Positions 34,138-64,000 of a stretch of 64,000 bases of DNA are shown here, one piece after another. The DNA lies in contig OZ245843.1 of the NCBI GenBank assembly GCA_965228875.1, positions 3,082,616 through 3,146,615 on the forward strand, written 5' to 3'. The notes under the pieces were generated by a model. The model did not search any database and was not told the DNA's origin. It saw only the letters and a list, made by a program, of their open reading frames with translations. The position numbers were made by a program, and so were the translations under genes. The stretch is from Thalassobaculaceae bacterium. Its GTDB lineage: Bacteria; Pseudomonadota; Alphaproteobacteria; Thalassobaculales; Thalassobaculaceae. Position 1 is the stretch's first letter; each line of letters opens with the position of its first letter.

Positions 34138-34144
34138 TAAAGCC

Positions 34145-40535: not shown

Positions 40536-40598
40536 ACAGGCTGCGACGAACAGATCGCTGGGCAACCTGAATGCGTAGCACGCCACTGACGTGCTTTA

Positions 40599-47406: not shown

Positions 47407-49785
47407 TTAGCGACGGACAGAGGTTGAGTGGACAAACCTGCTCCAAATTGGGAGCGCGATTTCAGAGAGACCGGGTCGCGCTTCGGCCGTCTCAACAAGC
47501 CTTTGAAGTTCTCCATGCACCGCCGCGGGATGTACCGCCCAATCGTGCATAGCCCGAATAGCAGCCCGAGTGCGCTCCTCCGCGTCTCGGATCGAGCTAA
47601 GCTCTCGGATCTGCACCAAGCCTTCGGCGATGAATACACGATCATCCAGCATTCGCTGATGAACCCACCGCACCTCTTCCTGCTCCGAGGCCGACAAGGC
47701 GTCCAATTTGGCATCGAGCAACCGAAGCTTTCGCAGCAATGCTTCCTCGGCCGCTGAAATGAATGCGACTGAAACCTGGTCAAGGCGTGAGATCCATTCC
47801 TGACCAAACATCTGGGTCAGTTTGCCTCGCACCGTACCGGTGCCGAAAAGAGCGAGCACACCACCAACGCCACCGAATACGACGGCACCGGCTGGACCGA
47901 ACAAGACAAGGCCAAGAGCTTTTCCAGACAGCCCCCCAGCAACCGAGAGCGATCCTCGGATCGCACCATCGAGGGCAATCTCGAATGGCAGATCCGTCAA
48001 TTCAATGGAGCCCTTCCACCAGCCATGCAGGTGTCGCGCAGCCGAGACCGCCACGGCGAAAATCGGGACATCCAGGTCCATTACCTCGGCGCCACCATCA
48101 AGACTTCGATCCAGCAACGTGTCCACGGTGCGGTAGTCAAAGCCATCAACAAAGTGGACCTTGCCCGCCCAAAGAGCACCAGACGATGCTACTTCCTCCG
48201 CCAGATCTCGATTGGCGTATACAGAGATATCTGGGTACCTTTCGAAGTGCTCGGCCAAGCCATCAATATCAAGCAGGCATTTGACCTGAAAGTGCTGGTC
48301 ATCGACTAGGAGGTCGAATCCCGGGTTATTGGCAGCCTCGGGTGTGGAGACGATATGCCCCTTCTCAAGCAAGCGAGCAGCAACGATTTGCTCAGCAATG
48401 TATCCCCGAAGATTGTTCTCCGCGCCGGTCAGCGCATGCCCCGCAAGGTCACCTACGTCTTCAGCAAATGCACCAAACCGGAACACGTCCCCTATATCAG
48501 CTGTCCGCGCGAAATCCGCCGCCACGACTACCTGTGGGTCGATCGATGCCGCCGAGTAGATGACTTCCCCCAAAGTCAAAGCACCGACGGCACCAACCTC
48601 AGCAGCGCTACCACCGTGGTAGGGAAAAAGCAGACCCTCCAAATTGGATCGCTCGATCCCGGTTGCGCCTTTCGCAAGTTCTCCAGGGGGTAGACCGGCC
48701 AATTCGGGTAACGAAGAACCGAACTCGGCCCTGATTGCCTGGATGCGAGATTGCAAGGTCGCTGATGACGTGTCCGGCCACGGCACATCGAGGGATCGAA
48801 AATCACTCATGACCGCTCCCAGTGCCTCCCGGTCACCGGAGAGCCCACGCAATGCAAGCATCACGGCCAGACCGGCCGCTAACCTTCCTCGCACACCCTG
48901 TTCGAGCTTTCTTTTCGCGAACCACCCGCCTCCCAAGATCGCCGGAACGGCAAACAGCGGGTTGGCGAGGACAAAAAGCGCCGATACCGCGGCCTTACCG
49001 CCTATGAGAGGCAGGAAGGCAGATGCCTGGGCCGCCAAGATGTAGGCACCGAACCCCGCGAGTTCCACGGCGACGCCAATTCCGGCCAAAGCGCCGCTTC
49101 CAGCAAGAAGGCTGATAATGGCAGCGTCGCCTTGCTTAACAGCCTGGGACTCGGCCTCCGTCCGCACTTCTGGAGACAGTTCGCTGACTCTCGCTTTGAA
49201 TTGCTTGGTGACGAGGGCGCGTTGCTCTTCGTCGAGTTCGCCTTTCTGCAATGCTTGAGCGATCAGACGACCTGCCTGCGCGGCCACTACGGCTGAGAAC
49301 TGAGGCCTATCTCCAAGGCCAAACGCTCGCTGGGCAACATCAGACGCTTGTCTAACTTGGTCGCGCCAGTCCTGAGCAGGTGCGATCTCGCGTTCCACCG
49401 TACCAGCCAAGCGGTCAGCAACTGCCGCGGCCAACTCAGCAGTCCCAACCGAGGCAGAACGGAACGACAATGGGACAGGTGGTGAACAACCAAGCCCTTT
49501 GCACAATTCAGCCCAAAGCATTAGCCGGAGCGCGGCAGTTCCGATTCCCGAAGCGTCCAAAGCCGTAGCCGTAGCTTCCAGTCGGCGCTGGTATGCCGAC
49601 TTCGCGGTGTCAGTTTGCTGCGATGTAAAGGGGGTCAGGTCCTGAAACCGATCGACTGCCAACTTAAGCAAACTGGCGTCGCGGAAGTTTGCCAGGAATG
49701 AACACAATTCAGAACGGTCTATAGATCCAAGACCAGCCAGCATATGCCACGGATGCACAGAGGAATTACTGGAAGTTTCTGACAT
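47407..49785 (-). CDS. Large hypothetical protein with two Gly-zipper membrane regions and a PD-(D/E)xK-like segment
   Basis: GYIAEQIVA...NPGFDLLVD...QVK; hydrophobic GALAGIGVAV and LFGPAGAVVFGGVGG segments. Confidence 0.7.
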   Translation of the reverse strand: MSETSSNSSVHPWHMLAGLGSIDRSELCSFLANFRDASLLKLAVDRFQDLTPFTSQQTDTAKSAYQRRLEATATALDASGIGTAALRLMLWAELCKGLGCSPPVPLSFRSASVGTAELAAAVADRLAGTVEREIAPAQDWRDQVRQASDVAQRAFGLGDRPQFSAVVAAQAGRLIAQALQKGELDEEQRALVTKQFKARVSELSPEVRTEAESQAVKQGDAAIISLLAGSGALAGIGVAVELAGFGAYILAAQASAFLPLIGGKAAVSALFVLANPLFAVPAILGGGWFAKRKLEQGVRGRLAAGLAVMLALRGLSGDREALGAVMSDFRSLDVPWPDTSSATLQSRIQAIRAEFGSSLPELAGLPPGELAKGATGIERSNLEGLLFPYHGGSAAEVGAVGALTLGEVIYSAASIDPQVVVAADFARTADIGDVFRFGAFAEDVGDLAGHALTGAENNLRGYIAEQIVAARLLEKGHIVSTPEAANNPGFDLLVDDQHFQVKCLLDIDGLAEHFERYPDISVYANRDLAEEVASSGALWAGKVHFVDGFDYRTVDTLLDRSLDGGAEVMDLDVPIFAVAVSAARHLHGWWKGSIELTDLPFEIALDGAIRGSLSVAGGLSGKALGLVLFGPAGAVVFGGVGGVLALFGTGTVRGKLTQMFGQEWISRLDQVSVAFISAAEEALLRKLRLLDAKLDALSASEQEEVRWVHQRMLDDRVFIAEGLVQIRELSSIRDAEERTRAAIRAMHDWAVHPAAVHGELQRLVETAEARPGLSEIALPIWSRFVHSTSVRR

Positions 49786-49822
49786 CGGGAACCTTTTTAT
49801 TTATACTATATTTTATGCTCCA

Positions 49823-50749
49823 CTAGGCTTCGACGAAACGCTCGAACCGCTCGGCGAGCCGGTTCCTGTCCGGGTAGTCCCGATCGCGCTTCGGGAACCT
49901 GATCAGCTGACCCGCAAGCGCCTTGACTCCGTACTCGAACATCGGGCCGTCGTTCATTGTGAGTAGAGCGTCACTGACATGGATACGGAAGTCTGGATCG
50001 ACGCCAATGAGGTTCGCATCGAAAGCTGCATGATGGATCTTTGAGAGTGGGAGGCCATTTGGGACGATCGGTTGGCCAAGGCCTTCGTCCTTGTCCGCAA
50101 TGATATGAGCAGCATCGAGCAATCGCGGCTCGGGGAGCCCGGAAATGGCGCAACGGTTGCCGTAGGCGGACAGAACGGCCTCACGGAACATTGCCTGGTG
50201 CAAACGCTGCCGTACCAGCCTCAATCCGTATCGGCGCTCCGGCGCATCCGGCATCGCCCATTCCTTGGCAGCAGTCGCGGGCGCCCCAAAGGCCAAACGG
50301 ACCTTCAGGTCGGCGGCTGACCAGTCGGCCACATACGTCGGCCAGACCAGCGTGTACCGCTGAGGCGCGACCCCAAGGAAGTAAAGGATCGGGATCTGCG
50401 CTTCATAGGCCTCACGAAGCCAGCGGTTGTCTGCGGCGTTTGGGTCGTCGCCCATGAAGGCATAGTCCACGAGCTCGTCACCGCGCTCTATCTGTGTGTG
50501 CACAGTCCGCTGATCGTCGTACCAAACCCGGGCGCCGGTTCGTGGGAACACCGTCCGAACACTGAGCAGGTGCTGCATCGAAGCGGGCTTAAAGATACCA
50601 CGCTGCGGATTGATCAGCGGGACACGAACCCCGTCGATGTGGAAGCCAACCCGAAGATCGTTCCCCGTGATCACGCCGCCTGATGCGATCCGCCTCAGGT
50701 GCTCCACTGCAGCCAGTCTGATGCGCGACTCAGCGAAATTCTTGCTCAT
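49823..50749 (-). CDS. HNH endonuclease with SRA-like N-terminus (type IV restriction-like)
   Basis: QRLHQAMFREAVLSAYGNRCAIS, LDAAHI, NGLPLSKIHHAAFD; N-terminal DNRWLREAYEAQIPILYF. Confidence 0.85.
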   Translation of the reverse strand: MSKNFAESRIRLAAVEHLRRIASGGVITGNDLRVGFHIDGVRVPLINPQRGIFKPASMQHLLSVRTVFPRTGARVWYDDQRTVHTQIERGDELVDYAFMGDDPNAADNRWLREAYEAQIPILYFLGVAPQRYTLVWPTYVADWSAADLKVRLAFGAPATAAKEWAMPDAPERRYGLRLVRQRLHQAMFREAVLSAYGNRCAISGLPEPRLLDAAHIIADKDEGLGQPIVPNGLPLSKIHHAAFDANLIGVDPDFRIHVSDALLTMNDGPMFEYGVKALAGQLIRFPKRDRDYPDRNRLAERFERFVEA

Positions 50750-50791
50750 CTCACACCATCGAGCAGGTCGACACCCGCATGATCAAGCCGG

Positions 50792-51724
50792 TCAGCCAAG
50801 ATACCTGTTCTCCCGATGCCACTCGAGTGCCTCAGGCGCAGGCATCGCCTCCTTTCGCCGCGGAGGGCGTATCGTCGTTCCCTGGAGCTCGTAGTAGTGC
50901 CTGCCGTTATCAAAATCCGCACGCAACCTGCTACTCACCTCGAAGCGGTTATCCGGCGCCACAGTCACATATCCCAGATCGAACAGCCGATGAATGTCCG
51001 TCCGCAATAGGAGCCCGTTCGACACCGCGTGCTCGCCACCGGCCTCGTACGCCTGGATATGTGCAGCGTCGAGTATAGGTAGTGTCTTCTCACCCGACAC
51101 CGCGCATCGGCGATCATAGCTGTCCGTGATTGCGAGCCTGAAGGCGCCCTGGCCCAACCGCGGCTTTATAAGGGTTGGGGTACCAAACCGTGCCACCGGC
51201 GTCTCGATGGCCGGTGCCGCGGGCATTGAGGCCAGCATCCGCTCCGACACTGCGTCCCAGATGTACTTCCCATCGCCCTCGGCGGTGCTGAAGCCTTTTC
51301 CCTGGACAATGTTCGGCGCCCAGCTATCCGGTACCGGTGCCCATAGCTCCCGAGGCCAGAAGAACGGCTGCGTCAGGATCCGGCATCCAACCAGCGGATC
51401 CTGGCGCACGTTCAGGATCGTGGGGTCTTTTCGGTACTTCGCGATGCGGGCTCGCATTTCGGCGCTGGTGGCCGCGCCGTTCTTCTCGCCGAAGGCTTCC
51501 CATGCCAACGACATTGGGACGATCGTCGAGTGCCCGAAAACGCCTCCGCCAACGATGAAATTGTCGGGAGCATGCAGCTTGAACAGGAAGAGCTCACCGG
51601 GTTTCAAAGTACGGAACTGCGTGCTGCCGCTCGGCTGCCAGAAGTTCACCTCGTCATGCGGAGCAGATGCTCCGAGCGTTTCAAACCAGGCTCGGTCCGT
51701 GACCCCGACGAATAAGCGGATCAT
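50792..51724 (-). CDS. HNH endonuclease with EVE/PUA-like N-terminus
   Basis: RLGQGAFR, YDRRCAVSG, LDAAHI, NGLLLRTDIHRLFD; N-terminal NFWQP..LKPGELFLF..IVGGG. Confidence 0.85.
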   Translation of the reverse strand: MIRLFVGVTDRAWFETLGASAPHDEVNFWQPSGSTQFRTLKPGELFLFKLHAPDNFIVGGGVFGHSTIVPMSLAWEAFGEKNGAATSAEMRARIAKYRKDPTILNVRQDPLVGCRILTQPFFWPRELWAPVPDSWAPNIVQGKGFSTAEGDGKYIWDAVSERMLASMPAAPAIETPVARFGTPTLIKPRLGQGAFRLAITDSYDRRCAVSGEKTLPILDAAHIQAYEAGGEHAVSNGLLLRTDIHRLFDLGYVTVAPDNRFEVSSRLRADFDNGRHYYELQGTTIRPPRRKEAMPAPEALEWHRENRYLG

Positions 51725-51831
51725 GTCTCACCGCTCGATGTGTAAGGCGGCGAGACGGTGAAGTTGACGAGCCACACTGTGTTTTCACCCATCCCAATGA
51801 ATTTGCAGGATGGCACCGCGATTTACTGCTC

Positions 51832-54423
51832 TCAACCAGAAGCTGATAGGTGGTCATCTTCCATTTCGTCGATCTTCCGGATGATGTTCGGGTCGGACCC
51901 TTCGCCATGGATCATGGCGATGAGTTCATGAAGGATATCGGCATTGCGCTCGAAACGGCGCGCGGCGGCATTATGCTTGGCCGCGACGGGACCGCGCGCT
52001 CGATCGCGCAACCGCTCCGCATCCATTTTGAATTGCTCGTTTCGACCCTGTGCGTCTACGAGTAGATTGATCAGGGTCCTGCCCGCAATCCCACCCTCTG
52101 GATCAATGAAGTTTGGGCGCACTCGGCGATGGCGAAGCAACGCGGCAAGCATTAGCAGCGATGCTTTGAACCTGCGCTTGTAGGCATCCTCTCTAGGGAC
52201 ATTGTTCTCGTCGTCTAGCTGCTCGCAGGTTTCCTGAAGGATCATGTTGGCCGTAGGTGTGCGTAGGACTTCAGCTGCCTCGTGGCACGTGCCTAAAACT
52301 CGACCAATCGCCGAAAACTCCGCCGCAACCAGCTTCCCAGCCCCCTCGAGCCTTCTGTCGACCGAATCAAAATACTCGACAAGTTCCTCAGCCGAATGCA
52401 CGACCCGACCTAACCCCTCGCGGTACAAGGTATGGTGCACAGGGAACTCAGAACGCCCACCGTACTTCGCGAGTAGGAGTTCTGTGACAGAAGCGGGGCT
52501 CCGCCAGAAGCACCAAGAGGCGAACCCGACGATGTCCCCCAGCAATTTCTCGTTGTTCCGAAGTCGCCGGTGCGCAAGCACCTCTTTAAGCTCATTACCG
52601 ACCTTCTTCAGGGCGGCGTTCAAGAGATTTTCAGCGCCCTCGGGAACGCGGAACTCGCCATTCGTCTCAGGCAAATAACCATCGCTGTCGAGAGCTCGGA
52701 AACTTCCAAGGTCATTGCAATCCAGACCCATCCTACGAGCCACATAGGAAGGAGTCTCTGGCTTGCTGAAACGTTCGCGGAGCGCTTGGAGTGCCTTGCG
52801 CCCACGATGGTCCACGTCTCCTGAACGTATCAGCGGGATGTCTATGTACGCCTGCAGCTGTCCTAGCAGATCGCCCTTCGGATGGCCTGAGTACCAGAGG
52901 AAAGGGTGCCCCGGCGTAGAAACGGCATCTGGGTAAGACAGGCCTCGCTGACCGCTTAGGCTCTCGAGGATCTCTTCCTTGGTTTGGTCGACCAACTCCA
53001 TCGTGGACCAATCGAGTTCGATCGGGCGTCGACGGAGAGCCTCGAAGGTGTCCGATGCAACCCGAACCTGCGCGAAACCCTGCCCAGGAGATTGCTCGAC
53101 GCTGACGAAGATCCGATGATCCTTGTCCGCCTCTTCCGGCAGATTGACTTCAGCTTTACGCCCGGTTGGAAAATCCTCCTTGAAGAGGAAGAAGACCGGC
53201 CGGACCGCGCCTTTTCCAATGGAGAAATCTCCTGGCGCCGCCCCCCTGTACACCATGCCCCCCGGCAAGCGCTTATGCTTGGGAATAAGCTCAACGAACC
53301 GGGGCTCACCGCCCACCAAGGCATTGATCTCCAACTGAGGCAGAAAGTCGTAGTAGACCGGTGCTCCGGCCGCGGCTCTGAGCGCAGCCGACAGGCATCC
53401 GCTGGCCACGAGGCCTCCGCCGCCTTGAAAAGCCGGGACATCGGGGACACCGATCGCCTGCAACACTGTCTGGGCCCATGTCTCGTTTCCCGCCATCGGT
53501 CCTTCAATGATCAGGGCTTCAGTTGCCGCGACACGCTCGAGGAACTCCTCTGGAATATCGGTCCGAGAAATGGCGACACGCGGCATCGCTCCGTCCGGAA
53601 CGCGTCGCCAGGAACGGTTTGGCAGACGAATGAGCTCGAAGCCCGGCCGTTCTCCGACCGAAAAACGCCACGGTGTATTGGCGGTCGAAAGTGTCTCCTC
53701 ATCGACAGCCTGCATTCGCGTAGCGAGTTCCAATATCCCCCGCTCGACCACCACTTCACCGGCACACGCCTGTCGGACCTCAAGACCGGCCTCACTGCGC
53801 TCGGGAACCCACAGATCGGTTTCCCTCCAGCGTTCCCTGACCAGTTTGGCGTCCGCGAATTGGATACCGCCACTCATCAACGAGAGCACTCCAATCCGCA
53901 TGTCGGGTTCCGGCTGAAAACCGCGATGATCGATCGGTTCCTCTAGCCACCCCAAAATCGCCGCGATCGGACGCCACAATAATGTGGAGCGAAGCCGACG
54001 GGTCTGAGATAACAACCGGAGCAGCCGATCTCTGGCGGGTTCATCAAAACTCGCGGCATCCGGGACCGCCACATGTACTGAACTTGGTTCTTCGACAAGG
54101 CCGTCAAGAAACATGGTGACGGCCTCTGCTTGCTCTTGCGTCAAGCAGTCTGAGGCGATCGCTTTTAGTACATCAGCCCAGAAAATGCGGTTCTCTGCGC
54201 CTCCGATCTCTCTTCCCCAACCCGGACCGCGACCGTGGGGAGCGAGAGCCGCCTGTAGACCGCCAATCCACCGGTAAGTCCCGACCTCGACATTCTGACC
54301 GGCCACCAGCCGAACGATTGAACCGCGAATTCCTAAATCCTTCAGGATCGGCTCGTTCTCGCCGTCACCTTCGGTAGCGAAATCCCAGAGTCCGTTCAGA
54401 TCAAAGCCGAGTGCGTTCCTCAT
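51832..54423 (-). CDS. Divergent Hsp70/actin-fold protein with helical C-terminus (CoCoNuT type III component)
   Basis: LGFDLNG start; VAVPDAASFDEPARDRL...LLWRPIAAILGW parallels Hsp70 ITVPAYFND.QRQ...IINEPTAAALAY. Confidence 0.65.
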   Translation of the reverse strand: MRNALGFDLNGLWDFATEGDGENEPILKDLGIRGSIVRLVAGQNVEVGTYRWIGGLQAALAPHGRGPGWGREIGGAENRIFWADVLKAIASDCLTQEQAEAVTMFLDGLVEEPSSVHVAVPDAASFDEPARDRLLRLLSQTRRLRSTLLWRPIAAILGWLEEPIDHRGFQPEPDMRIGVLSLMSGGIQFADAKLVRERWRETDLWVPERSEAGLEVRQACAGEVVVERGILELATRMQAVDEETLSTANTPWRFSVGERPGFELIRLPNRSWRRVPDGAMPRVAISRTDIPEEFLERVAATEALIIEGPMAGNETWAQTVLQAIGVPDVPAFQGGGGLVASGCLSAALRAAAGAPVYYDFLPQLEINALVGGEPRFVELIPKHKRLPGGMVYRGAAPGDFSIGKGAVRPVFFLFKEDFPTGRKAEVNLPEEADKDHRIFVSVEQSPGQGFAQVRVASDTFEALRRRPIELDWSTMELVDQTKEEILESLSGQRGLSYPDAVSTPGHPFLWYSGHPKGDLLGQLQAYIDIPLIRSGDVDHRGRKALQALRERFSKPETPSYVARRMGLDCNDLGSFRALDSDGYLPETNGEFRVPEGAENLLNAALKKVGNELKEVLAHRRLRNNEKLLGDIVGFASWCFWRSPASVTELLLAKYGGRSEFPVHHTLYREGLGRVVHSAEELVEYFDSVDRRLEGAGKLVAAEFSAIGRVLGTCHEAAEVLRTPTANMILQETCEQLDDENNVPREDAYKRRFKASLLMLAALLRHRRVRPNFIDPEGGIAGRTLINLLVDAQGRNEQFKMDAERLRDRARGPVAAKHNAAARRFERNADILHELIAMIHGEGSDPNIIRKIDEMEDDHLSASG

Positions 54424-56039
54424 GGGGAAAGAGCCTGCTCAATCACGGCAGCGAGCTCTTCGCCCAGAAGGCCCAGCGCATCCGCCAAATGGGAGTACCA
54501 GGGGCCGAACTCGACCCCCGTAACGTGTTCCGCACTCTGCAATCTGACGCTGGACTCCGGATCCAAGGCGGCCAAAAGAACAACGCCACCTGCCAGCATT
54601 GACCTATCCCGAAACAGCCGAATTGCTTCGTTCGCCGACTCGACCAACTCAGCGAGGTCAACGCCCTCGCTTGCGCTGTGCAGCGTCCAGACTGGCAAGT
54701 ACTTGAAGTCACCTCCATCATAGTCGGATATCCGCAGCCAAGCGGACGCACCTAGCTCCTTCATTACGTCGCGAACATCCTCGGAATCCCCACTCAGTAC
54801 CTCTGCGACCCATCGGTTCTCCTCGTCAGCGACCGCAACCAGAGGGTCGTCGTGGAGGAGCCACTCACCTCGGCGATGCTCCAACCTTACAAAGACGGGG
54901 GATGCGGCAGCCAAATGCGTCTTGCCCAGTGCGAGCAGGGCATGTGCCAGGCTAACTTTGCAGAACTCTGCCCAAGATCTGCGTTGCCAACGCCATAGGT
55001 CGTCCATCACGCGTTCGCGATGAATTATCTCCTGCCAGGCTGTCCAGACATGTTGATACCGGTTGTCGTGCAATAGGACATAGTTCGGCTGGACGACCTC
55101 GGGTGCCCGCATGACGCCCTGATCCTCGAGCTCAAGGGAGAGCCGCCGACACTCGCGCTGATACTGCTGCACGAGGGCATACCGCATAGTACGGCGCGTA
55201 GCCCGACCACGAGCTCGCTCGGCGTTAAGAGTGAGGTACTCGCGCGCTCCGCTCACCGTACGATCCAGGAGGTCCCGAAACACCCGGTTCTCAAGCGTAT
55301 TCCGGTTCTCGTAGCGGGATAGAGCCAGGATGCGTTGCCGTCCCCCTGCACGTTGTACAAGGCTGTTCCCCGGCTGCCTCGATAGCCATTGCATGCACTG
55401 TGTGTCGAGTTCCTGCACCCGGGACAAAGGGACGAGCTCGCGCTGGCGGTTAAGGACGCGACGTGGGTGCTCCGCGATCTCTGACCATCGGGCTCTGTGC
55501 TCCCGAGCATGCCGAACCAACACATCCATGGTCGGGTCACTTTGAGGCTCGGGATCGAGCCACCTATCCAGCACAAAGTCCCAGGGCTCGCGAGCGTCAG
55601 ACTGTGCGGCCTCAAAGTCGTGCATCCGCGACAGGATCGCGAGCATGAAGTCGAATGCTGGTTGGCCTGCGGCTACCTGGCCGTCGTCTGCTGCTCGAAG
55701 AACCGGCCGATCGACACCGCCATCCCACCGGAATTCTAGCTCTGAGGTCCACGATGCGTGACGCAATCGCTGCGGTTCAGATGCGTGGATCGGCACAGGG
55801 AGATCATAGACGATCTGCCGCTCGTGGAGTCGCGTTCTGATGCCGACAAAACTCTCTACCGTGTCCGCGCGGCCATTCAGGAAAACCTGTTGAGCATCAT
55901 CACAGAACAGCAGAGGTGAAACGGTCGCTGTCGTGTCCACTGACGCCGTGGAATCGGCAATCGCAGCCCGCGTCTTAGAGAGACCTACCAGCCCCCAAGG
56001 AACATGCAGGATTAGGAAGCCGGACATACTTGCGCTCAC
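54420..56039 (-). CDS. McrC-like DUF2357 protein (CnuC-like)
   Basis: NTLENRVF and PNYVLLHDNRYQHVW motifs; coupled to the McrB-like gene. Confidence 0.8.
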   Translation of the reverse strand: MSASMSGFLILHVPWGLVGLSKTRAAIADSTASVDTTATVSPLLFCDDAQQVFLNGRADTVESFVGIRTRLHERQIVYDLPVPIHASEPQRLRHASWTSELEFRWDGGVDRPVLRAADDGQVAAGQPAFDFMLAILSRMHDFEAAQSDAREPWDFVLDRWLDPEPQSDPTMDVLVRHAREHRARWSEIAEHPRRVLNRQRELVPLSRVQELDTQCMQWLSRQPGNSLVQRAGGRQRILALSRYENRNTLENRVFRDLLDRTVSGAREYLTLNAERARGRATRRTMRYALVQQYQRECRRLSLELEDQGVMRAPEVVQPNYVLLHDNRYQHVWTAWQEIIHRERVMDDLWRWQRRSWAEFCKVSLAHALLALGKTHLAAASPVFVRLEHRRGEWLLHDDPLVAVADEENRWVAEVLSGDSEDVRDVMKELGASAWLRISDYDGGDFKYLPVWTLHSASEGVDLAELVESANEAIRLFRDRSMLAGGVVLLAALDPESSVRLQSAEHVTGVEFGPWYSHLADALGLLGEELAAVIEQALSP

Positions 56040-58168
56040 TAGGACTGACGTGTGAAGCCACGCCAGACAAACAGGCCGTTCGACTCTCGTGATCGCAACA
56101 CCGCATCGTTGATCTCGTTGGCCAGCGTTCCATCCTGGAGCTCATTGCTGGCGATATCGGCCAGATCACGAAGAGGTCGGCTGTGCTCTTCAGCAACCAA
56201 ACCCCTTAACCTCGGCAGGATCCGCTGTTCGATCTGATCAGCAAGCGCAAAGTTCACCTGACCTATGTTATCGGTTCGGTTGGTTGCTGCCGGGTAATTC
56301 GCAACATAGTGCATCATCGCCTGGCCCATGCGATGACCGAACGGTCGGCCTAGCTCATTCATGACATCATTGATCTGCCCGACCACCTTCGAGGCTCGGG
56401 CTTGCTGAGATCCATCGAGTTTGTCGGCGCCGCGGATCCACGACCGTGCCCAGCGTGATTTCGGGAGAAAGCCCTTGGCAACGTACCTACTATCACTGGT
56501 GGGTAATGCCTCTTCGAGCTTTACTGGCTTGGGGAACCGCAGCACGTTGGCGCGGTCCAACACCTTGTCGGAGAGCGCGAGGGTCGACTCATCCTCGTTC
56601 ATAGTACCGACGAACAGAACGTTCTGCCCCACATAGACTCGCTTGCCTTGTCCGGCCTGGCTGACGTCGATGTCGATCTCTGAAGGGCGCCTATCATCGG
56701 CGGTCATCGAACTCTCGTCGAACGGCCGCCCCTCTAAACGACTTAAGAATTCTGAAAAGTAGTACTCGACACGAGCCAAGTTCATTTCATCGAGAAGAAC
56801 AAGCAACATTCTATCTTTATAATCTTCCGCCAATTCTTCCCAGTTCTCGGCATCAAGGTGGACAAGCGCACGAGCCAAGTCTGTCGCCTTGTACTTCTTC
56901 TCAATGTAGTTATAGAAACCGAATAGGTCCTGCGGACCATCCCATCTAGGCTGGACGGGAACCTTCAGAAAATGCACGCCCATCGCATCAGCGTAGTAGC
57001 GAGGAAGTTGGCTCTTTCCGGTGCCGCTGATGCCAGCCAGCACGGTAAGTGGCGAGATCACAGCTGTCTTCAGGCAGGTGTGGAAGGCGTTGACAGTGCG
57101 CTGTGGGAACTCGAGACCACTTTCGCGAAGGTGCTTCATCACCCGCTGAAGCGCATCGACTTCCTGCTCAGCTGCCATCTGATCGGGCAGAACGATATCG
57201 AACTGCCCGTCGTCTATCTCGCGGGCAAGACATGCGGGCGGCTTCGTCAGGTCGGCGAGAGCCTTATCATCAGTCTGTTTCCCGGTTTCCGAACCGTCGA
57301 TGTCGCTGAGCTCCTCGCGTAGGCGCTCGATGCGGGCCATCAGGCGGCCCTCGGTCGCCTCTTTCTCATCCAGAGAACGCAAGAGTTCATCGCGGCGAGA
57401 GGTCAATCCGGATAGCTCGCCTTCAACCTGCTTAACCTCAGCTTTAAGAGGGTCAAGCTGGGCCAGAGCATCCCTGGCATCTTCGACTGCAGTCTCTGCT
57501 TCCAACTTCTCTCGGGACAGCCGAGCAACCGCAGCCTCAAGCTCGTCAGCCTCTTCATGAAGTGCACGGGTACGCTCCCGAGCTCGCTCAACCTCAACTC
57601 CCAGTTCGCCCTTTTCGTGTTTCAAACTGGCTATGCGGTTCTCCAACTCCTCAACCGCGTCCCGAAGTTCAGCCTGCTGAGCATCAAGCCTCTCCTCTTC
57701 TGCTGCGATATTCTTGAGGCGTTCGTCTGCGGCCATAACACGCGCGCTAGCCTCGTCAGCCGCAGCTGTTTGCTCGCGCAGTTGTCCTTCCGCGATGGTC
57801 AGTTCCTCAAGCGCCTGCCGGTATTCCTCGCGGACCTCCTCGATTTCACGACGCTGGTCCGACAGGGCATCGTACTCCGCTCTCGCGGTCTCAGCGGCCG
57901 TGCGCCAATACTCCGCCTCGAGTTCGGCTTTCTCTCGTTCAGCAAGGGCGACCTCCTTGCGCTTCAGCTGCTCATCCAGTTCCTGGAGTCGCGCCTCCTG
58001 ACCACCAATCAAGACCTCGAGTTCTCCCAGGCGAGCCGCAGCCGGGAGGCGGTCGAATGCAATTTGATGTTGAACTCCAGCGCCAAACGAGAAGGCTAGA
58101 GTTAGTGCGACACAGAGTGCCGCCACGACGAGTGCGATCACGTCCGGCTCAAATAACCAATCCATCAC
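56039..58168 (-). CDS. TM plus coiled-coil McrB-family AAA+ GTPase (CnuB-like)
   Basis: N-terminal TM, long coiled coil, GISGTGKS, LLDEMNLARVEYYFSEFLS, GTMNED (NxD), KVLDRA. Confidence 0.9.
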   Translation of the reverse strand: MMDWLFEPDVIALVVAALCVALTLAFSFGAGVQHQIAFDRLPAAARLGELEVLIGGQEARLQELDEQLKRKEVALAEREKAELEAEYWRTAAETARAEYDALSDQRREIEEVREEYRQALEELTIAEGQLREQTAAADEASARVMAADERLKNIAAEEERLDAQQAELRDAVEELENRIASLKHEKGELGVEVERARERTRALHEEADELEAAVARLSREKLEAETAVEDARDALAQLDPLKAEVKQVEGELSGLTSRRDELLRSLDEKEATEGRLMARIERLREELSDIDGSETGKQTDDKALADLTKPPACLAREIDDGQFDIVLPDQMAAEQEVDALQRVMKHLRESGLEFPQRTVNAFHTCLKTAVISPLTVLAGISGTGKSQLPRYYADAMGVHFLKVPVQPRWDGPQDLFGFYNYIEKKYKATDLARALVHLDAENWEELAEDYKDRMLLVLLDEMNLARVEYYFSEFLSRLEGRPFDESSMTADDRRPSEIDIDVSQAGQGKRVYVGQNVLFVGTMNEDESTLALSDKVLDRANVLRFPKPVKLEEALPTSDSRYVAKGFLPKSRWARSWIRGADKLDGSQQARASKVVGQINDVMNELGRPFGHRMGQAMMHYVANYPAATNRTDNIGQVNFALADQIEQRILPRLRGLVAEEHSRPLRDLADIASNELQDGTLANEINDAVLRSRESNGLFVWRGFTRQS

Positions 58169-58194
58169 TCGTTTCCTCGTTCCTGGCGTAGTAT

Positions 58195-59811
58195 TTACTG
58201 CTGCACGGGTTTATCTGTTTGCTCAGCCGTTGGTGGCGCTGGGATTGTCGCCTCGAGCATCTGGCGCCTTACTTCGAGTTCTGAGATTGTTGTACTGAGA
58301 GCTTGAAGCTCGCCTCTCCGGCTCGCTACCCGGGCGAGAAGTTGGGTGACTTCAGCCTCGTGTTTCGATACCTTTGTCAGTAATTGCTGTTGCTGATTCC
58401 GAAGCTCCTGGACGCTTTCCTCGAGAGCTTGTTTTGCGCCACTCAGCGAGGATTCCTCGCCCTTCAGCGTCGCCACCTGCTCTTGTAACGCTTGCGCCTC
58501 CACCACAGACGCCTGAATTACCTGCAGATCTTGTTCTGCGCGCGTCAGCTGTTCACGCGTGCTTGCCAATGCTTGTTGCGCTTCGGTTCGCTCAGCCTCT
58601 ACCGCGTCTAGGGTCTTGCGCTGAGCTCTCAGGTCAGCGATCTCGCGTTCGAGTTTGGCCTTTTGCTCCGTCTCGGCGACGATGTGAGCTAGCGATTCAC
58701 GGGCTACGGAGAGCGCCTGCTCAACTTCAATGCGCTTCTGTTCGACGTCCTTCAACGTCCCTTGCTTGGCGATGAGATTGGCAATTTCGCGAACCAACAC
58801 CGCCTTCTCCGACCTCGCAACATCGGCTTGGTCAGACGCTTCCCGAACGTCAGCGGCAGCCTTCGTAAGCAATGCCTCCGCAGTCTTTAGCTCTGCAGAT
58901 GTGGATTCGAGGTCAGCCCGTTCCGTCTTTAAGCCTGCAATATCCGTCTCTAGACCCCGCTTGCTGGCTTCAAGGACGGCGACCTCTGCTGCCAACCTTT
59001 CTCGCTGCAGCACCACTTCGGCCAATATCTGCTGCTCGCTCGCAAGGTTGGTCCGAGCTTCGCGCGCTCGCGCAGAGGCGTCCTCCATCGACGTTTGTAG
59101 CGACGCCAGTCGGTCTTCTCTGTCACGTACCTGCGCATCGAGCTCGTCTCGACGCTGCTCAATCGACGCCATGGCGATCTTCAACGTGGAACGCTGCTCC
59201 AATACCTCGTCGGCTTCGGTGCGCGCTGAGACCCGTTGCTTATCAAGATCGGCCACGTCCGCACGCAGATCATTTAAGCGCTTCTGCTCAGCAGAGGCGG
59301 CTGAGCGTGCCTCGTCAGCCTCTCGCCGCGCGCCATCTCGTTCACGCTTCTGAGCCAATATGTCGTTCTGAAGGTCGTCTCTTTCCTTCCGTCGGTCCTG
59401 AATTTCACTACTTAGACCGGTTAGCTTGGCGCGCTCAGTTGCGCCTTCTTCGATAATTTTCTGAGCATCGTCAGCACGTTGCTCCAGAGATTCCTGTTGC
59501 TGCTCTAGAGTCTGAACGGTCATGGCAAGTTCCTGTCGTCTCGTCGTCAGGTCTGCCAACTGGGTCTCAAGCTCAAAAGCCTGGGATTTCGAAGAGTCGA
59601 CCCTCTGTAAGAGAAGCGCGAGTTCCTGCCTCAGAGACGCTCGTTCAGTCACCGACTTCAGCACCGTGATCCCAAGCACGGCGATCGCTAACAGCCCGAT
59701 GGCTGCCAACGAGGCAAGTAGAACAAGCCGAGGACGGCCAGCCTGCCTCCCAGAATCTCTGGCAAGCCTTTCGGAGATGCTAGGCTCTGTACTCGGCTTC
59801 AATTCGCTCAA
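58195..59811 (-). CDS. Membrane-anchored long coiled-coil protein (CnuA-like)
   Basis: TTG start with GGAG RBS; TM LVLLASLAAIGLLAIAVLGITVL followed by a very long heptad-rich region. Confidence 0.82.
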   Translation of the reverse strand: MSELKPSTEPSISERLARDSGRQAGRPRLVLLASLAAIGLLAIAVLGITVLKSVTERASLRQELALLLQRVDSSKSQAFELETQLADLTTRRQELAMTVQTLEQQQESLEQRADDAQKIIEEGATERAKLTGLSSEIQDRRKERDDLQNDILAQKRERDGARREADEARSAASAEQKRLNDLRADVADLDKQRVSARTEADEVLEQRSTLKIAMASIEQRRDELDAQVRDREDRLASLQTSMEDASARAREARTNLASEQQILAEVVLQRERLAAEVAVLEASKRGLETDIAGLKTERADLESTSAELKTAEALLTKAAADVREASDQADVARSEKAVLVREIANLIAKQGTLKDVEQKRIEVEQALSVARESLAHIVAETEQKAKLEREIADLRAQRKTLDAVEAERTEAQQALASTREQLTRAEQDLQVIQASVVEAQALQEQVATLKGEESSLSGAKQALEESVQELRNQQQQLLTKVSKHEAEVTQLLARVASRRGELQALSTTISELEVRRQMLEATIPAPPTAEQTDKPVQQ

Positions 59812-62800
59812 GACACGTCTCCATATCATCGCGCAGTTCGTAGACCCAGAAGCGCAGCACTTTCCAACCCAGGCCACGCAGCTGGTGATCTCGCCAGAGA
59901 TCTGTTGCAAGGCGATTACCGTCGACATCGGTGTGGAACGTTACCCCATCGACCTCGATATCGATCCGGACAGGCGGACTCCGCGTTTCGTCTACGAGGG
60001 CCAGATCCAGGAACCGTCCTCCGACGGGATGCTGAGCAATAGGCGAAAGTCCTCGCTTCACCAGCGCATCGTAGAGCCTTCGCTCCCACGGACTGTCGAA
60101 ACGATCGTCCCCGCTATCTTCGATTCGAGCCGCAGCTTGGCTTACTTTCCGGGCGAGCAGTTCCACATGAGAAATTCCACAGGACCTCGCAAAGTCGAGA
60201 TCCCCAAAGACGTGGCATACGGCTCGAGCGCGGCTAACCGCCACGTTCAGCAGGCGGCGCTCTTTCTGGATGAAGCTGCGAGCTCCTGCAGGCATTGTGG
60301 GGCCGAGGCACAGCGACAATAACATCACGTCGCGCTCGTCGCCCTGAAACTTGTTCGCTGTGAAAACCTTCACCGCATGTTTGTTCAGTTCCGCGGCTCC
60401 GATCTGACGCGCCGCCATCTCATTGATCGTGCGCGCTTGGAAGTCGAAGAACGTTACAACGCCGATCGTACCTTCGAAGCCTTGTTCGATAAGGACCTTC
60501 AGATGTTCGACGATTGCCTTGGCTTCGGCTTCGGATGACGCTGACCCGGTCGCTCCGCCGGTTCGCGACACAACAGGGCCGGTTACACTCGTCCAGTGCA
60601 ACCCCGATCGAAAACCACGTGGAACTCGGAGGCGGGAGACATCGGTTAATGCCGCCAGCCGCCGACCGTAAAATGCCTCATTGAAGTAGGCTGCTATCTC
60701 TGGATGGCACCGATAGTGCTCAGTGAGCATGAAACGGGCGTCGCCTGCGTAGGCCGAGGCGAGGTCAAAAAGTGTAGTTCGGCCTTGTGCATAGCGGCCG
60801 ATGCCCTCTCGAAGAAGGTCGTGACGCTGGAGGAGGTCTCGCTCTTCTCGAGGATCGAGGTTTGAAATCATCGCCAGTTGCATCGGATCACCGACGATCA
60901 CCGCGGCTCGAGCCCGGTACAACAAGGGCACCGCCGAAGCGATGTCCGTCTGCGCCGCCTCGTCGAAGATTACGTAGTCGAACATTCCGGCCTCGGCCGG
61001 AATTCGGCTGCCCGCCGCTAGCGTCGTGACGGCCCAAAGCGGAAAGTGCTTTAGGATAAGGTTCCGGGCTGGCGCCGAGAGGGTTCCGGAACCCATGAGG
61101 CTAGAATCGCCAGCTAAGTCGGTGAGGGCCTGGCGCGCCTCTGTCGTCACCGTGTCTAGGTTGTCGAGCAATGGCTCCACAAGCTTCGCGGCTTCGTCTG
61201 CTAGTTGTTGCGACACCTCGATAGGCGTCTCAGTAGCACCTTCCAATGTCTTTCTGAGTTCATCGATATGCAGTTCCACCGCTTCAAGCTCGTCTCGAAG
61301 GCTGGCCAGTTCCTTTGCCCCCTGGGCACGCGCCCAAGATTGCCCAAACGCGATTGGCCCAGGTCTTCCCCAAATCTTCGATATGAACCAACGGGAGAGC
61401 CGCGCCCAGAAGCCAGAGCTCGGTGCCGCACTCAAGACGCCTGCCTGCGAGACCTCTAGCTCCCGAAGTCTGCGCTCGGCGGCCTCCACCTTCGCTAGGA
61501 GTTCTGCGGACCTGATGGTCTCGATGCGTAATGACTGCCATTTTTCAAGCAGCGCCCACCGTCTTCGATCCAGGTCGGCTATCCGGTCATACCTTCCGCC
61601 AAATAGTCGCGCTGATTCGACATCGCCTACTCGGGTTTGCAGCGACTTAAGAGCATCGGAGAACCGAAAACCACCGAAGCCCTCTGCTTCGTTCGCTCGA
61701 ATTAGCAGCACGCGATCGCCGGTCAAATCATGCAAGCGCTCTTGCACAGCATCGAGAGCCCGATGCTGGCGGGCCGCGAACAGAACAGATTTTCCGGCCA
61801 CTGCCGCGCTCAGCATGATCGCCGCGATAACCTGCGACTTACCTGTACCCGGTGGCCCGGTGATGACCGTCAGCGGTCCCTGCAAGGCCGTCCGTGCAGA
61901 AAGAAGTTGGGATTCCCCCATGGGAAATGGATGCACTACTGGCGGCGGCGGAGCCACTTGTCCTGCCCCCCCGAAAAAGACGTCGAGTGCAGTACCGGTG
62001 AATCGCTCTTCACCTTGGGCTTGCAACACGTCGTAGTCGCCGATTGCCGAACGTGTGTAGCGGCTACCGCCGTCGACCATCAGCGTGATCGCATTGTAGT
62101 ACCCTGTCTTCGGATCGGCTGTGACGGTCGCGGGGATCGCATCGGGATCCAGTCGCTGCTGTACGCTCTTCCCAGCGGCGATCGCGAGCCGACTTGCAAA
62201 GGTTGGAATTTCAACGAAGTCAGGCGCCGCGACATCATCATCTTCCTCAAGGCCTGCCTGCTCATCTTCTAGCAGCAGCCAGCTTTTCAATCGGGCTACG
62301 TCCCAACCGCCGTACTTCTTCTGATCCCGCAACCAATCTTGAACGATCGCAGGTGGCATAGATGGAATTCGGATCTCGAGGTGGGTTTGGGTCACCAGAT
62401 ATTGGCAGCGGAACGTCGTAACCGGCCTCAGGAACGCCTGCCTCTCGGCTCCCGACGGATTGATGACATGGACCGGGTAGCCTAGAAGCAGCTTGCGTCC
62501 AACGTTCTTGGCCAGCAAAGGCTTGAAGGCCTCTGGAAGCCGTGACAGCGGGACCCGCAGTACTCGTCCGTGACTTGCGGTAGGCCACCAGGGACCATCC
62601 GGCTGCAGCAGAACAAAAGACTCGCCATTCCGCGGAATGAATTCGACTGGGGAGCCTCCATCCCCCGCCCGGAGAGCTTCCTGGTAATATGGCAACAGAC
62701 GCTTCAGCAGCGCGTGGTTGGGGGCGATCTTGCCATCGGGCACCGCATCGAGCGGATCTGAGCTTTCCCCGATATGCGCCAAGCACGGGACGGCTGCTAG

Positions 62801-63067
62801 CGTCTCGATCCCCGGTAAATCAGTTCCCGCAATTGGCGACGACGAACCAAAAGGATCGTTTCTGCGGATACGCCACTTCCTCGAGGTTCCGATCTGAACG
62901 TGACCTCGTTCGCTCAGTGAACGCAGTACGCGGACGATGTCATCCTTTCGGGCTTGGGCTCCTGCCGCCATTAGATGAGAACGTAGACGTTCAACCGTCA
63001 GACCGCGGGGCGCACCGTCGAGCAGTCGAAGCAGCTGGTCCTCTAAGGATGTGTCTAGCATCACCAT
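59780..63067 (-). CDS. SF1 (UPF1/Dna2-like) helicase with N-terminal wHTH and C-terminal Vsr/DUF559-like nuclease (CnuH-like)
   Basis: GPPGTGKS, DEAAQ, VGDPMQL, EHYRCHPEI, FQGDERD, LNVAVSRAR; FDSPWE...IEVDG..FH...RD..L..LGWKVLRFW. Confidence 0.92.
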   Translation of the reverse strand: MVMLDTSLEDQLLRLLDGAPRGLTVERLRSHLMAAGAQARKDDIVRVLRSLSERGHVQIGTSRKWRIRRNDPFGSSSPIAGTDLPGIETLAAVPCLAHIGESSDPLDAVPDGKIAPNHALLKRLLPYYQEALRAGDGGSPVEFIPRNGESFVLLQPDGPWWPTASHGRVLRVPLSRLPEAFKPLLAKNVGRKLLLGYPVHVINPSGAERQAFLRPVTTFRCQYLVTQTHLEIRIPSMPPAIVQDWLRDQKKYGGWDVARLKSWLLLEDEQAGLEEDDDVAAPDFVEIPTFASRLAIAAGKSVQQRLDPDAIPATVTADPKTGYYNAITLMVDGGSRYTRSAIGDYDVLQAQGEERFTGTALDVFFGGAGQVAPPPPVVHPFPMGESQLLSARTALQGPLTVITGPPGTGKSQVIAAIMLSAAVAGKSVLFAARQHRALDAVQERLHDLTGDRVLLIRANEAEGFGGFRFSDALKSLQTRVGDVESARLFGGRYDRIADLDRRRWALLEKWQSLRIETIRSAELLAKVEAAERRLRELEVSQAGVLSAAPSSGFWARLSRWFISKIWGRPGPIAFGQSWARAQGAKELASLRDELEAVELHIDELRKTLEGATETPIEVSQQLADEAAKLVEPLLDNLDTVTTEARQALTDLAGDSSLMGSGTLSAPARNLILKHFPLWAVTTLAAGSRIPAEAGMFDYVIFDEAAQTDIASAVPLLYRARAAVIVGDPMQLAMISNLDPREERDLLQRHDLLREGIGRYAQGRTTLFDLASAYAGDARFMLTEHYRCHPEIAAYFNEAFYGRRLAALTDVSRLRVPRGFRSGLHWTSVTGPVVSRTGGATGSASSEAEAKAIVEHLKVLIEQGFEGTIGVVTFFDFQARTINEMAARQIGAAELNKHAVKVFTANKFQGDERDVMLLSLCLGPTMPAGARSFIQKERRLLNVAVSRARAVCHVFGDLDFARSCGISHVELLARKVSQAAARIEDSGDDRFDSPWERRLYDALVKRGLSPIAQHPVGGRFLDLALVDETRSPPVRIDIEVDGVTFHTDVDGNRLATDLWRDHQLRGLGWKVLRFWVYELRDDMETCLERIEAEYRA

Positions 63068-63457
63068 CAGACTGAATCAGTCTGGGCACCCATGAATATA
63101 GGGTTCATCTAGCCCCCCCCAGGCTTGTATGAACTAGCATCAATTGCATGCCCTTCGAGAAATGGCTCTACGCGTCGCCATTTTTCGGTTTTATCGGATT
63201 TAATCAGTGTACAACCTAACCCATGTCGATTGTCGTCGGGAGAGGGTAAGTGACTCGAGCATGTGACAGTACGCACATCAACTGATTGGGGTTGAGATCA
63301 GATCGAGCAGGCTCAGACCACTCGCAGATATTTTCTGGAATTGCTACGGGCAGCGCCCTGAACGAACCGAAGGGACCAAGGTCCATATTTGGCCGCAGCA
63401 ACACACCTGCAAGTTGAGAGGTCTTTCCTCGCGTGCTTCAATCCAACCCTCAGGGGT

Positions 63458-64000
63458 ATGGGAAGTTTCATGATCAGCGCAGGTAGGCGATACGCGAACC
63501 TTCGAAGGCAGGCCTATTTGGCATTGTCACCGCGATCAATCTGCGGCGAGAGGCTATCCTGGGTAAATCGTGTCATCGCCAGTCTGATACTCTTCTCGAT
63601 CCTCATTGCCATCTTCGAAAGTGAGCCATCGATCGATCATGAGTTCGGCTACGGCTTCTTCCTGTTGGAAGTCGGGATAACGAGCGCGTTCGCGATTGAA
63701 TACGCCGCCCGGGTCTGGGCGAGCGTCGAAGATCCCAAGTTTGGGCCAGGCCTCAATGGGCGGTTGCGATACTGCATCTCTCCTGCAGCATTGCTCGATC
63801 TGCTGGCCATCACACCACTGTTCTTGAGCATGGCAGGCAGCGAAGCCTTTATGTTTCGTCTTCTCAGGTTGCTCAGAATCCTGCGGTTGGCGAAGCTTGG
63901 CCGATATTCCACTGCGATGTCTGCGATCGTGGACGCGATCCGCTCCCGACGGTACGAACTCGCGGCCAGTGTTGCATGTGCTGCCGTCCTCCTGCTGATT
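63458..64000 (+). CDS. Voltage-gated potassium channel/ion transporter, runs off the window (absent from ORF track)
   Basis: Manual translation: FAIEYAARVW, LLDLLAI, S4-like FRLLRLLRILRLAKLGRY. Confidence 0.88.
   Translation, partial: MGSFMISAGRRYANLRRQAYLALSPRSICGERLSWVNRVIASLILFSILIAIFESEPSIDHEFGYGFFLLEVGITSAFAIEYAARVWASVEDPKFGPGLNGRLRYCISPAALLDLLAITPLFLSMAGSEAFMFRLLRLLRILRLAKLGRYSTAMSAIVDAIRSRRYELAASVACAAVLLLI

Follow-up and report, generated by a model that had tools for sequence, protein, structure and literature searches.

A probable Type III-B CoCoNuT and its three downstream neighbours in an alphaproteobacterial defence island

We analysed a stretch of 64,000 nt from contig OZ245843.1 (the window, to which all positions refer unless stated otherwise) of a Thalassobaculaceae bacterium with a closed 4.96-Mb genome (GCA_965228875.1). 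Five genes at 51832-63067 probably constitute a complete Type III-B CoCoNuT (coiled-coil nuclease tandem), a derivative of McrBC type IV restriction, and the three genes that follow at 47407-51724 are probably independently acquired single-gene modules. Our open reading frame (ORF) calls show that 47407-63067 is filled without a break by eight co-oriented ORFs on the minus strand, all of which are real genes and not chance ORFs because each has many full-length homologues. An earlier note, made from the sequence alone, had described this region as one defence operon in which a membrane-anchored type III CoCoNuT-like core is extended by three effectors. Its layout of eight co-oriented genes with overlaps or gaps of at most about 110 bp agrees with the exact coordinates, the largest gap being 107 nt, and its domain calls (helicase-Vsr, transmembrane (TM) coiled coils, McrB GTPase, DUF2357 and two HNH proteins) are matched by Pfam, PADLOC and hydropathy.

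The five-gene core

Type III-B was defined by Bell, Sahakyan, Makarova, Wolf and Koonin (eLife 2024, PMC11090510). As the passages on this subtype describe it, CnuH is a UPF1-like helicase that starts with a Sul7s-like wHTH and an OB fold, has a helical insertion behind its Walker A motif and is fused directly to a Vsr-like nuclease, without a separate CnuE; CnuA is a separate coiled-coil protein; CnuB joins a coiled coil to a GTPase with an NxD signature that is usually followed by E or D; CnuC combines an N-terminal Ig-like domain and DUF2357 with an inactivated PD-(D/E)xK domain; and CnuD is a separate protein, Hsp70-like with HEAT-like repeats. The TerY-P triad (VWA, PP2C phosphatase, kinase) is absent, and the subtype is mainly alphaproteobacterial; in the published tree its CnuB GTPase domains form a clade. 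The genes at 51832-63067 agree with this description in the NxD GTPase, the CnuB coiled coil, the CnuH helicase-Vsr fusion, CnuA, the DUF2357 of CnuC with its lack of conserved nuclease residues, and CnuD. No TerY-P domain (VWA, PP2C phosphatase or kinase) was found among the island ORFs scanned, and the five core genes are contiguous. Domain and gene-order evidence thus narrows the type III core of the earlier note to the published III-B subtype, of which it is probably an ordinary, complete member.

The first gene, cnuH (59780..63067), encodes a 1095-aa superfamily 1 (UPF1-like) helicase that carries a large insertion behind Walker A and ends in a fused Vsr-like nuclease. The insertion comprises ~100 aa, since the Pfam AAA_11 match extends over aa 385-732 for only 248 profile positions. 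Pfam also returned AAA_12 and, at aa 995-1091, MTES_1575 (4.3e-13) and DUF559; the helicase/Vsr part is matched by the PADLOC models PDC-S37, MkoA/C and Hhe, and aa 1-356 gave nothing usable in Pfam. The Vsr-like domain is predicted to be the only active nuclease of the core. The next gene, cnuA (58195..59928), encodes 577 aa when taken as the longest ORF, with a single-pass membrane anchor followed by a coiled coil of ~480 aa. Its Pfam and NCBIfam matches are of the SMC/Rad50 coiled-coil type only, all below the cut-offs, and no other globular domain was recognised among them. Taken in this form, cnuA overlaps cnuH by 149 nt. Because the conserved TM segment of its relatives begins 10-40 aa past the cnuH stop, the true start is probably nearer that stop (candidates at ~59829 or ~59811) than at 59928.

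The product of cnuB (56039..58168; 709 aa) consists of an N-terminal TM helix, a coiled coil of ~300 aa, matched by SMC, Rad50 and JetC models across aa ~37-330, and an McrB-type AAA+ GTPase from ~aa 376, which matches AAA_5 and, at 1.3e-45, PADLOC PDC-M26A. Its signature reads GTMNEDE, that is, NxD followed by E, so the reading of MNED as an NxD variant in the earlier note holds. The signature is conserved as N[ED]DE without an inserted residue in 63/63 homologues, as are Walker A (63/63) and DEMN (63/63). CnuC (54420..56039; 539 aa) is an McrC-like protein with a Pfam DUF2357 match at 3.2e-6 and no coiled-coil matches. Its C-terminal part lacks the conserved catalytic Asp/Lys: across aa 360-539 of a 66-sequence alignment, no column holds D or K at 85% or more, a conservation pattern that fits a dead nuclease.

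For cnuD (51832..54423; 863 aa), searches of Pfam, PADLOC and NCBIfam gave no match, and its family is rare, comprising 67 clusters, none with a Pfam domain. We folded the protein with AlphaFold2 from a 46-sequence alignment, which gave a model with a mean pLDDT of 89.1 in which strands and helices make up aa 1-480 and aa 480-860 are all helical. In a Foldseek search with this model, every top row was DnaK, BiP or Hsp110 (E 1.6e-12 to ~1e-9, over ~590 columns). The confident predicted fold confirms the Hsp70-like gene of the earlier note, with a nucleotide-binding and a substrate-binding domain followed by a helical-repeat C-terminal half. Between cnuA and cnuB lie 26 nt, cnuB and cnuC overlap by 1 nt, and cnuC and cnuD by 4 nt; the five core genes are probably translationally coupled and form one unit.

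Conservation of the core was analysed by scanning the CnuD alignment over one genome per prokaryote species. The 76 loci obtained are mostly from Rhodobacterales and Rhizobiales, in keeping with the alphaproteobacterial range given for III-B by Bell et al., with some from Binatia and other metagenome-assembled genomes (MAGs). Within the class, 4/401 sampled genomes have CnuD, one of them being that of the window. The order CnuH-CnuA-CnuB-CnuC-CnuD is found in 57/59 loci with at least 8.8 kb of upstream sequence, CnuH, CnuB and CnuC having the same order and strand; the exceptions are L065 and L074 (individual loci are given by L numbers).

The genes behind CnuD were compared in 56 related loci with at least 3 kb past the CnuD stop. 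They are heterogeneous and, judged by eye, lie more often on the opposite strand; the 35 co-oriented ORFs scanned include a TerB-N protein, transposases, a cystathionine-type enzyme, an Omp85 protein and many ORFs without a family. This neighbour count had been set beforehand as the refutation test for a core extended by three effectors, and it speaks against that claim. An HNH_2 homologue follows CnuD in 1/56 loci (L072), a further case, L002, being outside the count with only 567 nt downstream, and a homologue of the 792-aa protein encoded last in the window's row of eight lies downstream of CnuD in 3/56: L033 (adjacent, opposite strand), L039 (adjacent, same strand) and L066 (7.5 kb off). 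In the window itself, the G+C content of third codon positions (GC3) is 0.62-0.65 in four core genes (cnuA unscored) versus 0.73, 0.72 and 0.58 in the three downstream genes. Because the next genes vary, the linkage of HNH_2 and 792-aa homologues is rare and GC3 differs, cnuD is, on this sequence evidence, the last gene of the conserved system.

Membrane anchoring and a possible mechanism

Using a hydropathy window of 19 residues and a threshold of 1.6, we detected one TM segment each in CnuA (aa 69-87 in the numbering of the 577-aa ORF) and CnuB (aa 10-28). CnuC, CnuD and the two HNH proteins have no such segment, and the single segment of CnuH is a buried one at the Walker A strand. The N-terminal TM segment of CnuB is present in 62/62 full-length homologue ORFs, or 63/63 with the window, and that of CnuA in 57/60 homologues, L012, L046 and L062 having no segment. 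Membrane anchoring is a trait of the III-B family; the earlier note was right about an anchored form, but the form is not special to this locus.

The flanks of the CnuB helix carry on average 0.14 Lys/Arg before it and 2.44 after it, with fewer on the N-terminal side in 63/63 sequences, and an N-out/C-in orientation is therefore predicted, as a cytoplasmic GTPase requires. For CnuA the means are 3.14 on the N-terminal and 2.39 on the C-terminal side (N-terminal side higher in 32, equal in 15 and lower in 10). Its predicted topology is ambiguous and leans towards N-in, in which case its ~480-aa coiled coil would lie on the non-cytoplasmic side, unlike that of CnuB. The word 'transmembrane' is used six times in the main text of PMC11090510, never about III-B, and has no occurrence in the four supplementary files considered; with the family-wide CnuA/CnuB anchors, the published picture of the subtype gains a small but genuine point.

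What the data show are the domains, the conserved motifs, the gene order and the TM helices found throughout the family. By analogy with McrBC and in line with the hypothesis of Bell et al., a model can be outlined from them, in which we infer the target (RNA and/or DNA), the succession of events and all protein contacts. CnuB, tethered to the inner membrane through its N-terminal helix and reaching into the cytoplasm with its coiled coil and GTPase, would form an McrB-like ring whose GTPase is stimulated by the catalytically dead McrC-like CnuC. The Hsp70-like CnuD, for which Bell et al. propose RNA binding in their account of the protein (PMC11090510), may serve as target sensor or clamp. 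CnuH would unwind the foreign nucleic acid and cut it with its Vsr-like domain, the only nuclease predicted to be intact, and the membrane-anchored CnuA could scaffold the assembly through coiled-coil or TM contacts. The anchors shift the likely model towards an McrBC-like motor bound to the membrane, the site of phage genome entry, at which some ribosomes are also active.

The genes downstream of cnuD and the surrounding island

Downstream of cnuD and a 107-nt spacer lies HNH1 (50792..51724; 310 aa), followed after 42 nt by HNH2 (49823..50749; 308 aa). Both proteins end in an HNH_2 nuclease (Pfam 2.6e-9 for HNH1 and 1.6e-9 for HNH2), and HNH2 also matches the PADLOC HNH model PDLC04132 at 1.5e-25. 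Since only the C-terminal 127 columns of the two families align in hhalign, HNH1 and HNH2 share the nuclease but differ in their N-terminal domain of ~170 aa. The N-terminal 175 aa of each gave no Pfam match, and neither did those of 18 and 28 family members; a profile search of the PDB by sequence matched no solved structure to the two N-terminal domains. ESM Atlas look-ups with the whole HNH1 and HNH2 proteins returned HNH_2 clusters only. The family profiles match VcaM4I (PDB 6YEX, identified as such in PMC7897488) at 6.6e-11 for HNH1 and 7.7e-4 for HNH2, in the HNH part only, and the score for TagI (6ghs) was 0.11.

The HNH1 family is very large, with 7997/8000 scored candidates at E<=1e-10. 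The best 120 homologues listed are 62-91% identical over 95-100% of the length and are named 'HNH endonuclease' or 'putative restriction endonuclease' in their sources. The family occurs in 16/401 sampled genomes of the class, and four HNH1 loci from other genomes have no full-length HNH2, CoCoNuT gene or 792-aa homologue nearby. HNH2 has 421 representative clusters at E<=1e-30. HNH1 is probably a stand-alone restriction-type gene, judging from these relatives. No methyltransferase domain was seen among the Pfam matches of the scanned window ORFs. We think that both proteins may be modification-dependent or sequence-reading restriction-type enzymes, and would guess from motif patterns that their N-terminal domains are PUA-, EVE- or SRA-like readers. 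In size and position these domains resemble those of the PUA-HNH modification-dependent enzymes that Lutz et al. describe (PMC6765204), whose readers belong to the PUA superfamily (EVE/SRA/ASCH).

The last gene of the row (47407..49785), 37 nt from HNH2, encodes a 792-aa protein. It starts with a helical N-terminal domain, followed by a glycine-zipper region at aa ~222-284, a PD-(D/E)xK-like core at aa ~450-560, a second glycine-zipper region at aa ~619-652 and a C-terminal helical bundle; the hydrophobic stretches in its hydropathy profile are aa 222-284 and 619-652. Pfam, PADLOC and NCBIfam returned no family above threshold, with PDDEXK_5 on aa 430-560 (E 0.0014) below the Pfam cut-off. The family comprises 71 clusters of ~790 aa, all 'hypothetical' and none with a Pfam domain. 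Invariant columns in a 41-sequence alignment, with identity down to 28%, include G461, E465, G489, D491, D495, Q500, K502, H513 and F514, of which E465/D491/Q500/K502 make up the E...D...QxK pattern of PD-(D/E)xK nucleases. FGPAGA at 629-634 is likewise invariant and lies within a glycine-rich hydrophobic stretch.

The AlphaFold2 model of this protein is middling (pLDDT 68.2, pTM 0.72) and weak in the hydrophobic parts. Foldseek against the PDB gave nothing at E<=0.001, the only matches being local ones to a CdiA-CT nuclease domain, MspJI and the R2 endonuclease, and a sequence search against PDB chains gave nothing at E<=1. In a whole-bank structural alignment, CdiA-CT (4g6v) came first, with Z 6.7 over 102 residues in the model range 414-548. 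YaeQ reached Z 5.6, and the remaining matches (Z<=6.7) are mostly helical-bundle noise at aa 648-770. The match of the model to CdiA-CT at this Z is suggestive only. From the invariant residues and the two hydrophobic regions, the protein is probably an active nuclease core held between two membrane-inserting regions.

Full-length members of the 792-aa family occur in 2/401 sampled genomes of the class, which hold one further fragment. In 64 metagenome loci, together with a few from genomes and plasmids, they have variable neighbours of the defence-island type, which include type I restriction-modification, T5orf172, Schlafen/AlbA_2, an Hhe-type helicase, a Gabija-like pair, AbiU2, NYN, integrases and a relaxase. 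No neighbour family is common to the loci beyond near-identical contigs (71 loci, 364 ORFs). An HNH_2 gene lies immediately upstream of the 792-aa homologue in L125 and L128, and on a Paracoccus plasmid the homologue stands alone beside IS110. A CoCoNuT gene was detected in 2/64 metagenome loci, L084 and L146, each time a CnuH-like helicase. In L124 (5621-11644) and L145 (4723-10507), the 792-aa gene follows a DEAD helicase and a small coiled-coil gene on the same strand, a layout that echoes CnuH + CnuA. In L146 (4286-11836) it follows an Hhe-type DUF4011/MTES_1575 helicase, again on the same strand; the helicases of L124 and L146 bear Vsr-like DUF559/MTES_1575. All three downstream families, those of HNH1 and HNH2 included, occur in many unrelated contexts, which does not support the suggestion of the earlier note that they extend the core. 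The 792-aa family is in itself a candidate new defence gene, being unannotated, located in defence islands and unusually often beside III-B.

Several observations weigh against a separation of the downstream genes from the core. A consensus scan of the 107-, 42- and 37-nt gaps on the minus strand gave no terminator-like site and no sigma-70-like promoter, so that all eight genes could plausibly share a transcript. In the window and in the three loci named above, a member of the 792-aa family is found at most 10 kb from CnuD, though both families are rare (CnuD 4/401, 792-aa 2/401), and in L084 its gene is just upstream of the CnuH-like gene; closeness of the two families in four or five instances is far above random placement. 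According to the III-A passage of PMC11090510 (supplementary file 1, rows 83-84), extended III-A operons encode a protein termed 'bacteriocin-like glycine zipper' whose PD-(D/E)xK fold is inactivated, so a functional tie of the 792-aa protein to the core is possible. The contexts compared are those of relatives other than the closest ones (CnuD 63-89%, HNH1 85-91% and the 792-aa protein 71% identical), L001 (67%) ending 140 nt past CnuD, and relatives in the nearest clade may have kept the same eight genes. A literature search for tests of III-B systems found none, as the earlier note had supposed in calling the core largely untested; in the sources seen, only type II was shown to be protective. 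The argument from closeness between the 792-aa and CnuD families loses weight, however, since defence genes cluster in islands and the loci share ancestry.

Two readings build on the 792-aa protein. The first, which we consider rather unlikely, takes III-B as a membrane-tethered surveillance machine, with CnuB N-out/C-in and CnuA maybe in reverse, and the 792-aa family as its recurrent membrane effector, paralleling the III-A glycine-zipper protein. The second makes the 792-aa protein, as a membrane nuclease-like effector or sensor acting with CnuA/CnuB, a facultative III-B partner, the HNH genes being independent. The two rare families meet in varied geometries in the window, L033, L039 and L066, with L084 as an upstream case, core and 792-aa protein are both predicted membrane proteins, helicase genes, partly with a coiled-coil gene, precede the 792-aa gene in L124, L145 and L146, and the III-A protein supplies a precedent. 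However, the 792-aa gene is missing from 53 of the 56 III-B loci compared downstream of CnuD, 62/64 metagenome loci of the family are without a detectable CoCoNuT gene, the family has no common neighbour, defence genes cluster without cooperating, and the loci are not phylogenetically independent. On balance this partnership is unlikely.

That all eight genes form one functional super-operon, with HNH1, HNH2 and the 792-aa protein as added effectors, would fit their position on one strand with gaps of at most 107 nt and without a terminator-like site. A core with a catalytically dead CnuC could gain from extra nucleases, and HNH_2 genes abut CnuD in L072 and L002. This is nevertheless very unlikely given the rare linkage (HNH_2 1/56, 792-aa 3/56), the origin of HNH1 and HNH2 from very large stand-alone families of ~300 aa that are found elsewhere without the core, the deviating GC3 of the extra genes and the Vsr-like nuclease already brought by CnuH. 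We prefer a complete III-B CoCoNuT with three separately acquired neighbours: the eight-gene 'super-operon' is best read as ordinary stacking in a defence island, in which HNH1, HNH2 and the 792-aa gene may, in this strain, be transcribed by read-through from the CoCoNuT promoter, yet are not components of the system.

The whole region is a dense defence island. The G+C content is ~70% up to ~28000 and then 52-61% to the window end, and the low-GC stretch runs at least 16 kb beyond it. At the break, 28038-32860 encodes TniQ, TniB and a 768-aa TnsB-like transposase (rve + Mu C-terminal), which mark the left edge of the island; these genes are 14.5 kb from the eight-gene row and read leftwards, away from it. 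A second TniQ lies 3 kb further in, at 35567-36541, no TnsA ORF was found among the window ORFs, and a 22-nt repeat occurs at 27942, 29117 and 33845. Around the eight genes there are no convincing inverted or terminal repeats, only short weak pairs. The Tni/Tns genes may be stacked or decayed Tn7/Tn5053-like elements. A Tn7-like transposon would have TnsA, TnsB, TnsC and TniQ/TnsD genes at one end and terminal repeats enclosing its cargo; the eight genes, which the earlier note tentatively placed on such an element, are only possible cargo. Rfam over 27000-64000 gave nothing at gathering score, and a tRNA scan found none in the window or in the following 20 kb.

Between the transposon genes and the 792-aa gene, the island holds a typical toxin-antitoxin pair at 34094-35226, an Xre-like antitoxin (Xre-like-HTH + MbcA/ParS C-terminal) followed by a RES-domain toxin. 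At 38982-41555, a 517-aa AAA ATPase precedes a 318-aa DEDDh (RNase_T) exonuclease with matches to the PADLOC models DEDDh and PDC-S48, and this region may be another defence module. An ORF of the endonuclease/exonuclease/phosphatase family is found at 42861-43862. At 44172-45619, where the G+C content of the window is at its lowest (0.476 in a 2-kb bin), a 100-aa IS110-type transposase fragment lies beside a 237-aa ORF with GC3 0.30 and no family match.

On the other side of the core, an ion-transport channel gene is divergent from cnuH (63389-64000 region), and just past the window end lies a complete Shango system with SngA (TerB-N protein, 1.1e-95), SngB (1.5e-174) and SngC (1.9e-269). Channel and Shango occupy 63389-64000 and positions 5-7475 of L148, a stretch that runs past the window end (contig positions 3146000-3165999). 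After Shango come a PD-(D/E)xK/RNase H-like ORF and a Mokosh-like helicase ORF (fragment), then, at L148 11990-15225 and towards the far end of the island, a row of arginase-family, radical-SAM (viperin-like, weak, 1.9e-14) and JmjC/cupin hydroxylase genes ahead of an IS3-type integrase. In a Rhodospirillaceae MAG (L016, 12747-15755), the same-strand gene right after CnuD encodes a TerB-N/TerB/TerB-C protein with a peptidoglycan-binding domain, the same architecture as that of the SngA-like gene beside the window's system; Shango-type genes thus adjoin III-B CoCoNuTs in two distant loci.

It is highly improbable that the core is a membrane-associated nucleic-acid or protein quality-control machine on a mobile island and not an immune system: the literature search found no III-B test and an Hsp70-like protein and a UPF1-like helicase are present, but the core lies in a low-GC island with Shango, a toxin-antitoxin pair and restriction-type genes, its distribution is patchy (4/401 genomes) and type II CoCoNuT protects against phages.

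Comparison with known systems

The core shows no architectural difference from the published III-B CoCoNuT. The N-terminal TM helices of CnuA and CnuB, present here and family-wide, are not mentioned for III-B in the text of PMC11090510 considered, and HNH genes, two of which follow the core in the window, have no occurrence in it (0 counts). The literature search on Cnu gene names returned only Bell et al., its preprint and one YprA preprint; III-B CoCoNuTs are known from one computational study, and the complete, compact locus in the window is a usable experimental start.

Among relatives, the type II CoCoNuT 'Obs' locus of Pseudomonas aeruginosa protects against two RNA phages and one DNA phage, as reported in bioRxiv 10.64898/2026.04.06.716636. 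It belongs to the same superfamily but is a seven-gene type II system, not III-B; type II systems carry a HEPN CnuE and TerY-P, according to the type II passages of PMC11090510. E. coli McrBC likewise has an AAA+ GTPase (McrB) and a DUF2357 partner (McrC) that stimulates GTP hydrolysis, as outlined in the same paper's background. It has NxxD, whereas the window's CnuB has NxD, and in the window the McrC-like CnuC is without the nuclease motif and helicase-nuclease, Hsp70-like and coiled-coil proteins are added. CoCoPALM, as its section in PMC11090510 portrays it, also places a TM helix and coiled coil N-terminal of an NxD GTPase (FtsB-like fusion), but is linked to signal-peptidase/pilus genes, and its McrC homologue bears coiled coils as well, where the window has CnuH, CnuA and CnuD. 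We rejected CoCoPALM as an identity for the core, with no signal-peptidase or pilus gene in or beside the operon and no coiled-coil match in CnuC.

For the HNH genes, the nearest likeness is to PUA-HNH enzymes such as VcaM4I, which in the portions of PMC7897488 and PMC6765204 concerned are also of ~300 aa, with an N-terminal domain of ~170 aa and a homologous C-terminal HNH domain. For the 792-aa protein, the literature search found no described family of its kind besides the III-A passage of Bell et al. Shield ShdA, which the Shield passage of PMC11090510 describes as a TM helix, a coiled coil and an RmuC nuclease, was rejected as its identity, since the protein has no RmuC Pfam match and no PADLOC Shield model at E<=0.01. 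The 792-aa protein, the III-A protein and ShdA, the latter two as those passages present them, have in common a restriction-endonuclease fold and a membrane or glycine-zipper element, encoded beside a CoCoNuT. The III-A glycine-zipper protein is the nearest described analogue, compared here by description only. Its fold is described there as inactivated, whereas the 792-aa protein has the invariant E...D...QxK and looks active; it further differs in its length of ~790 aa and in its two glycine-zipper regions, one on either side of the nuclease core. The analysis adds two points to the published account, universal CnuA/CnuB anchors (with the three CnuA exceptions given above) and an unannotated membrane nuclease-like family.

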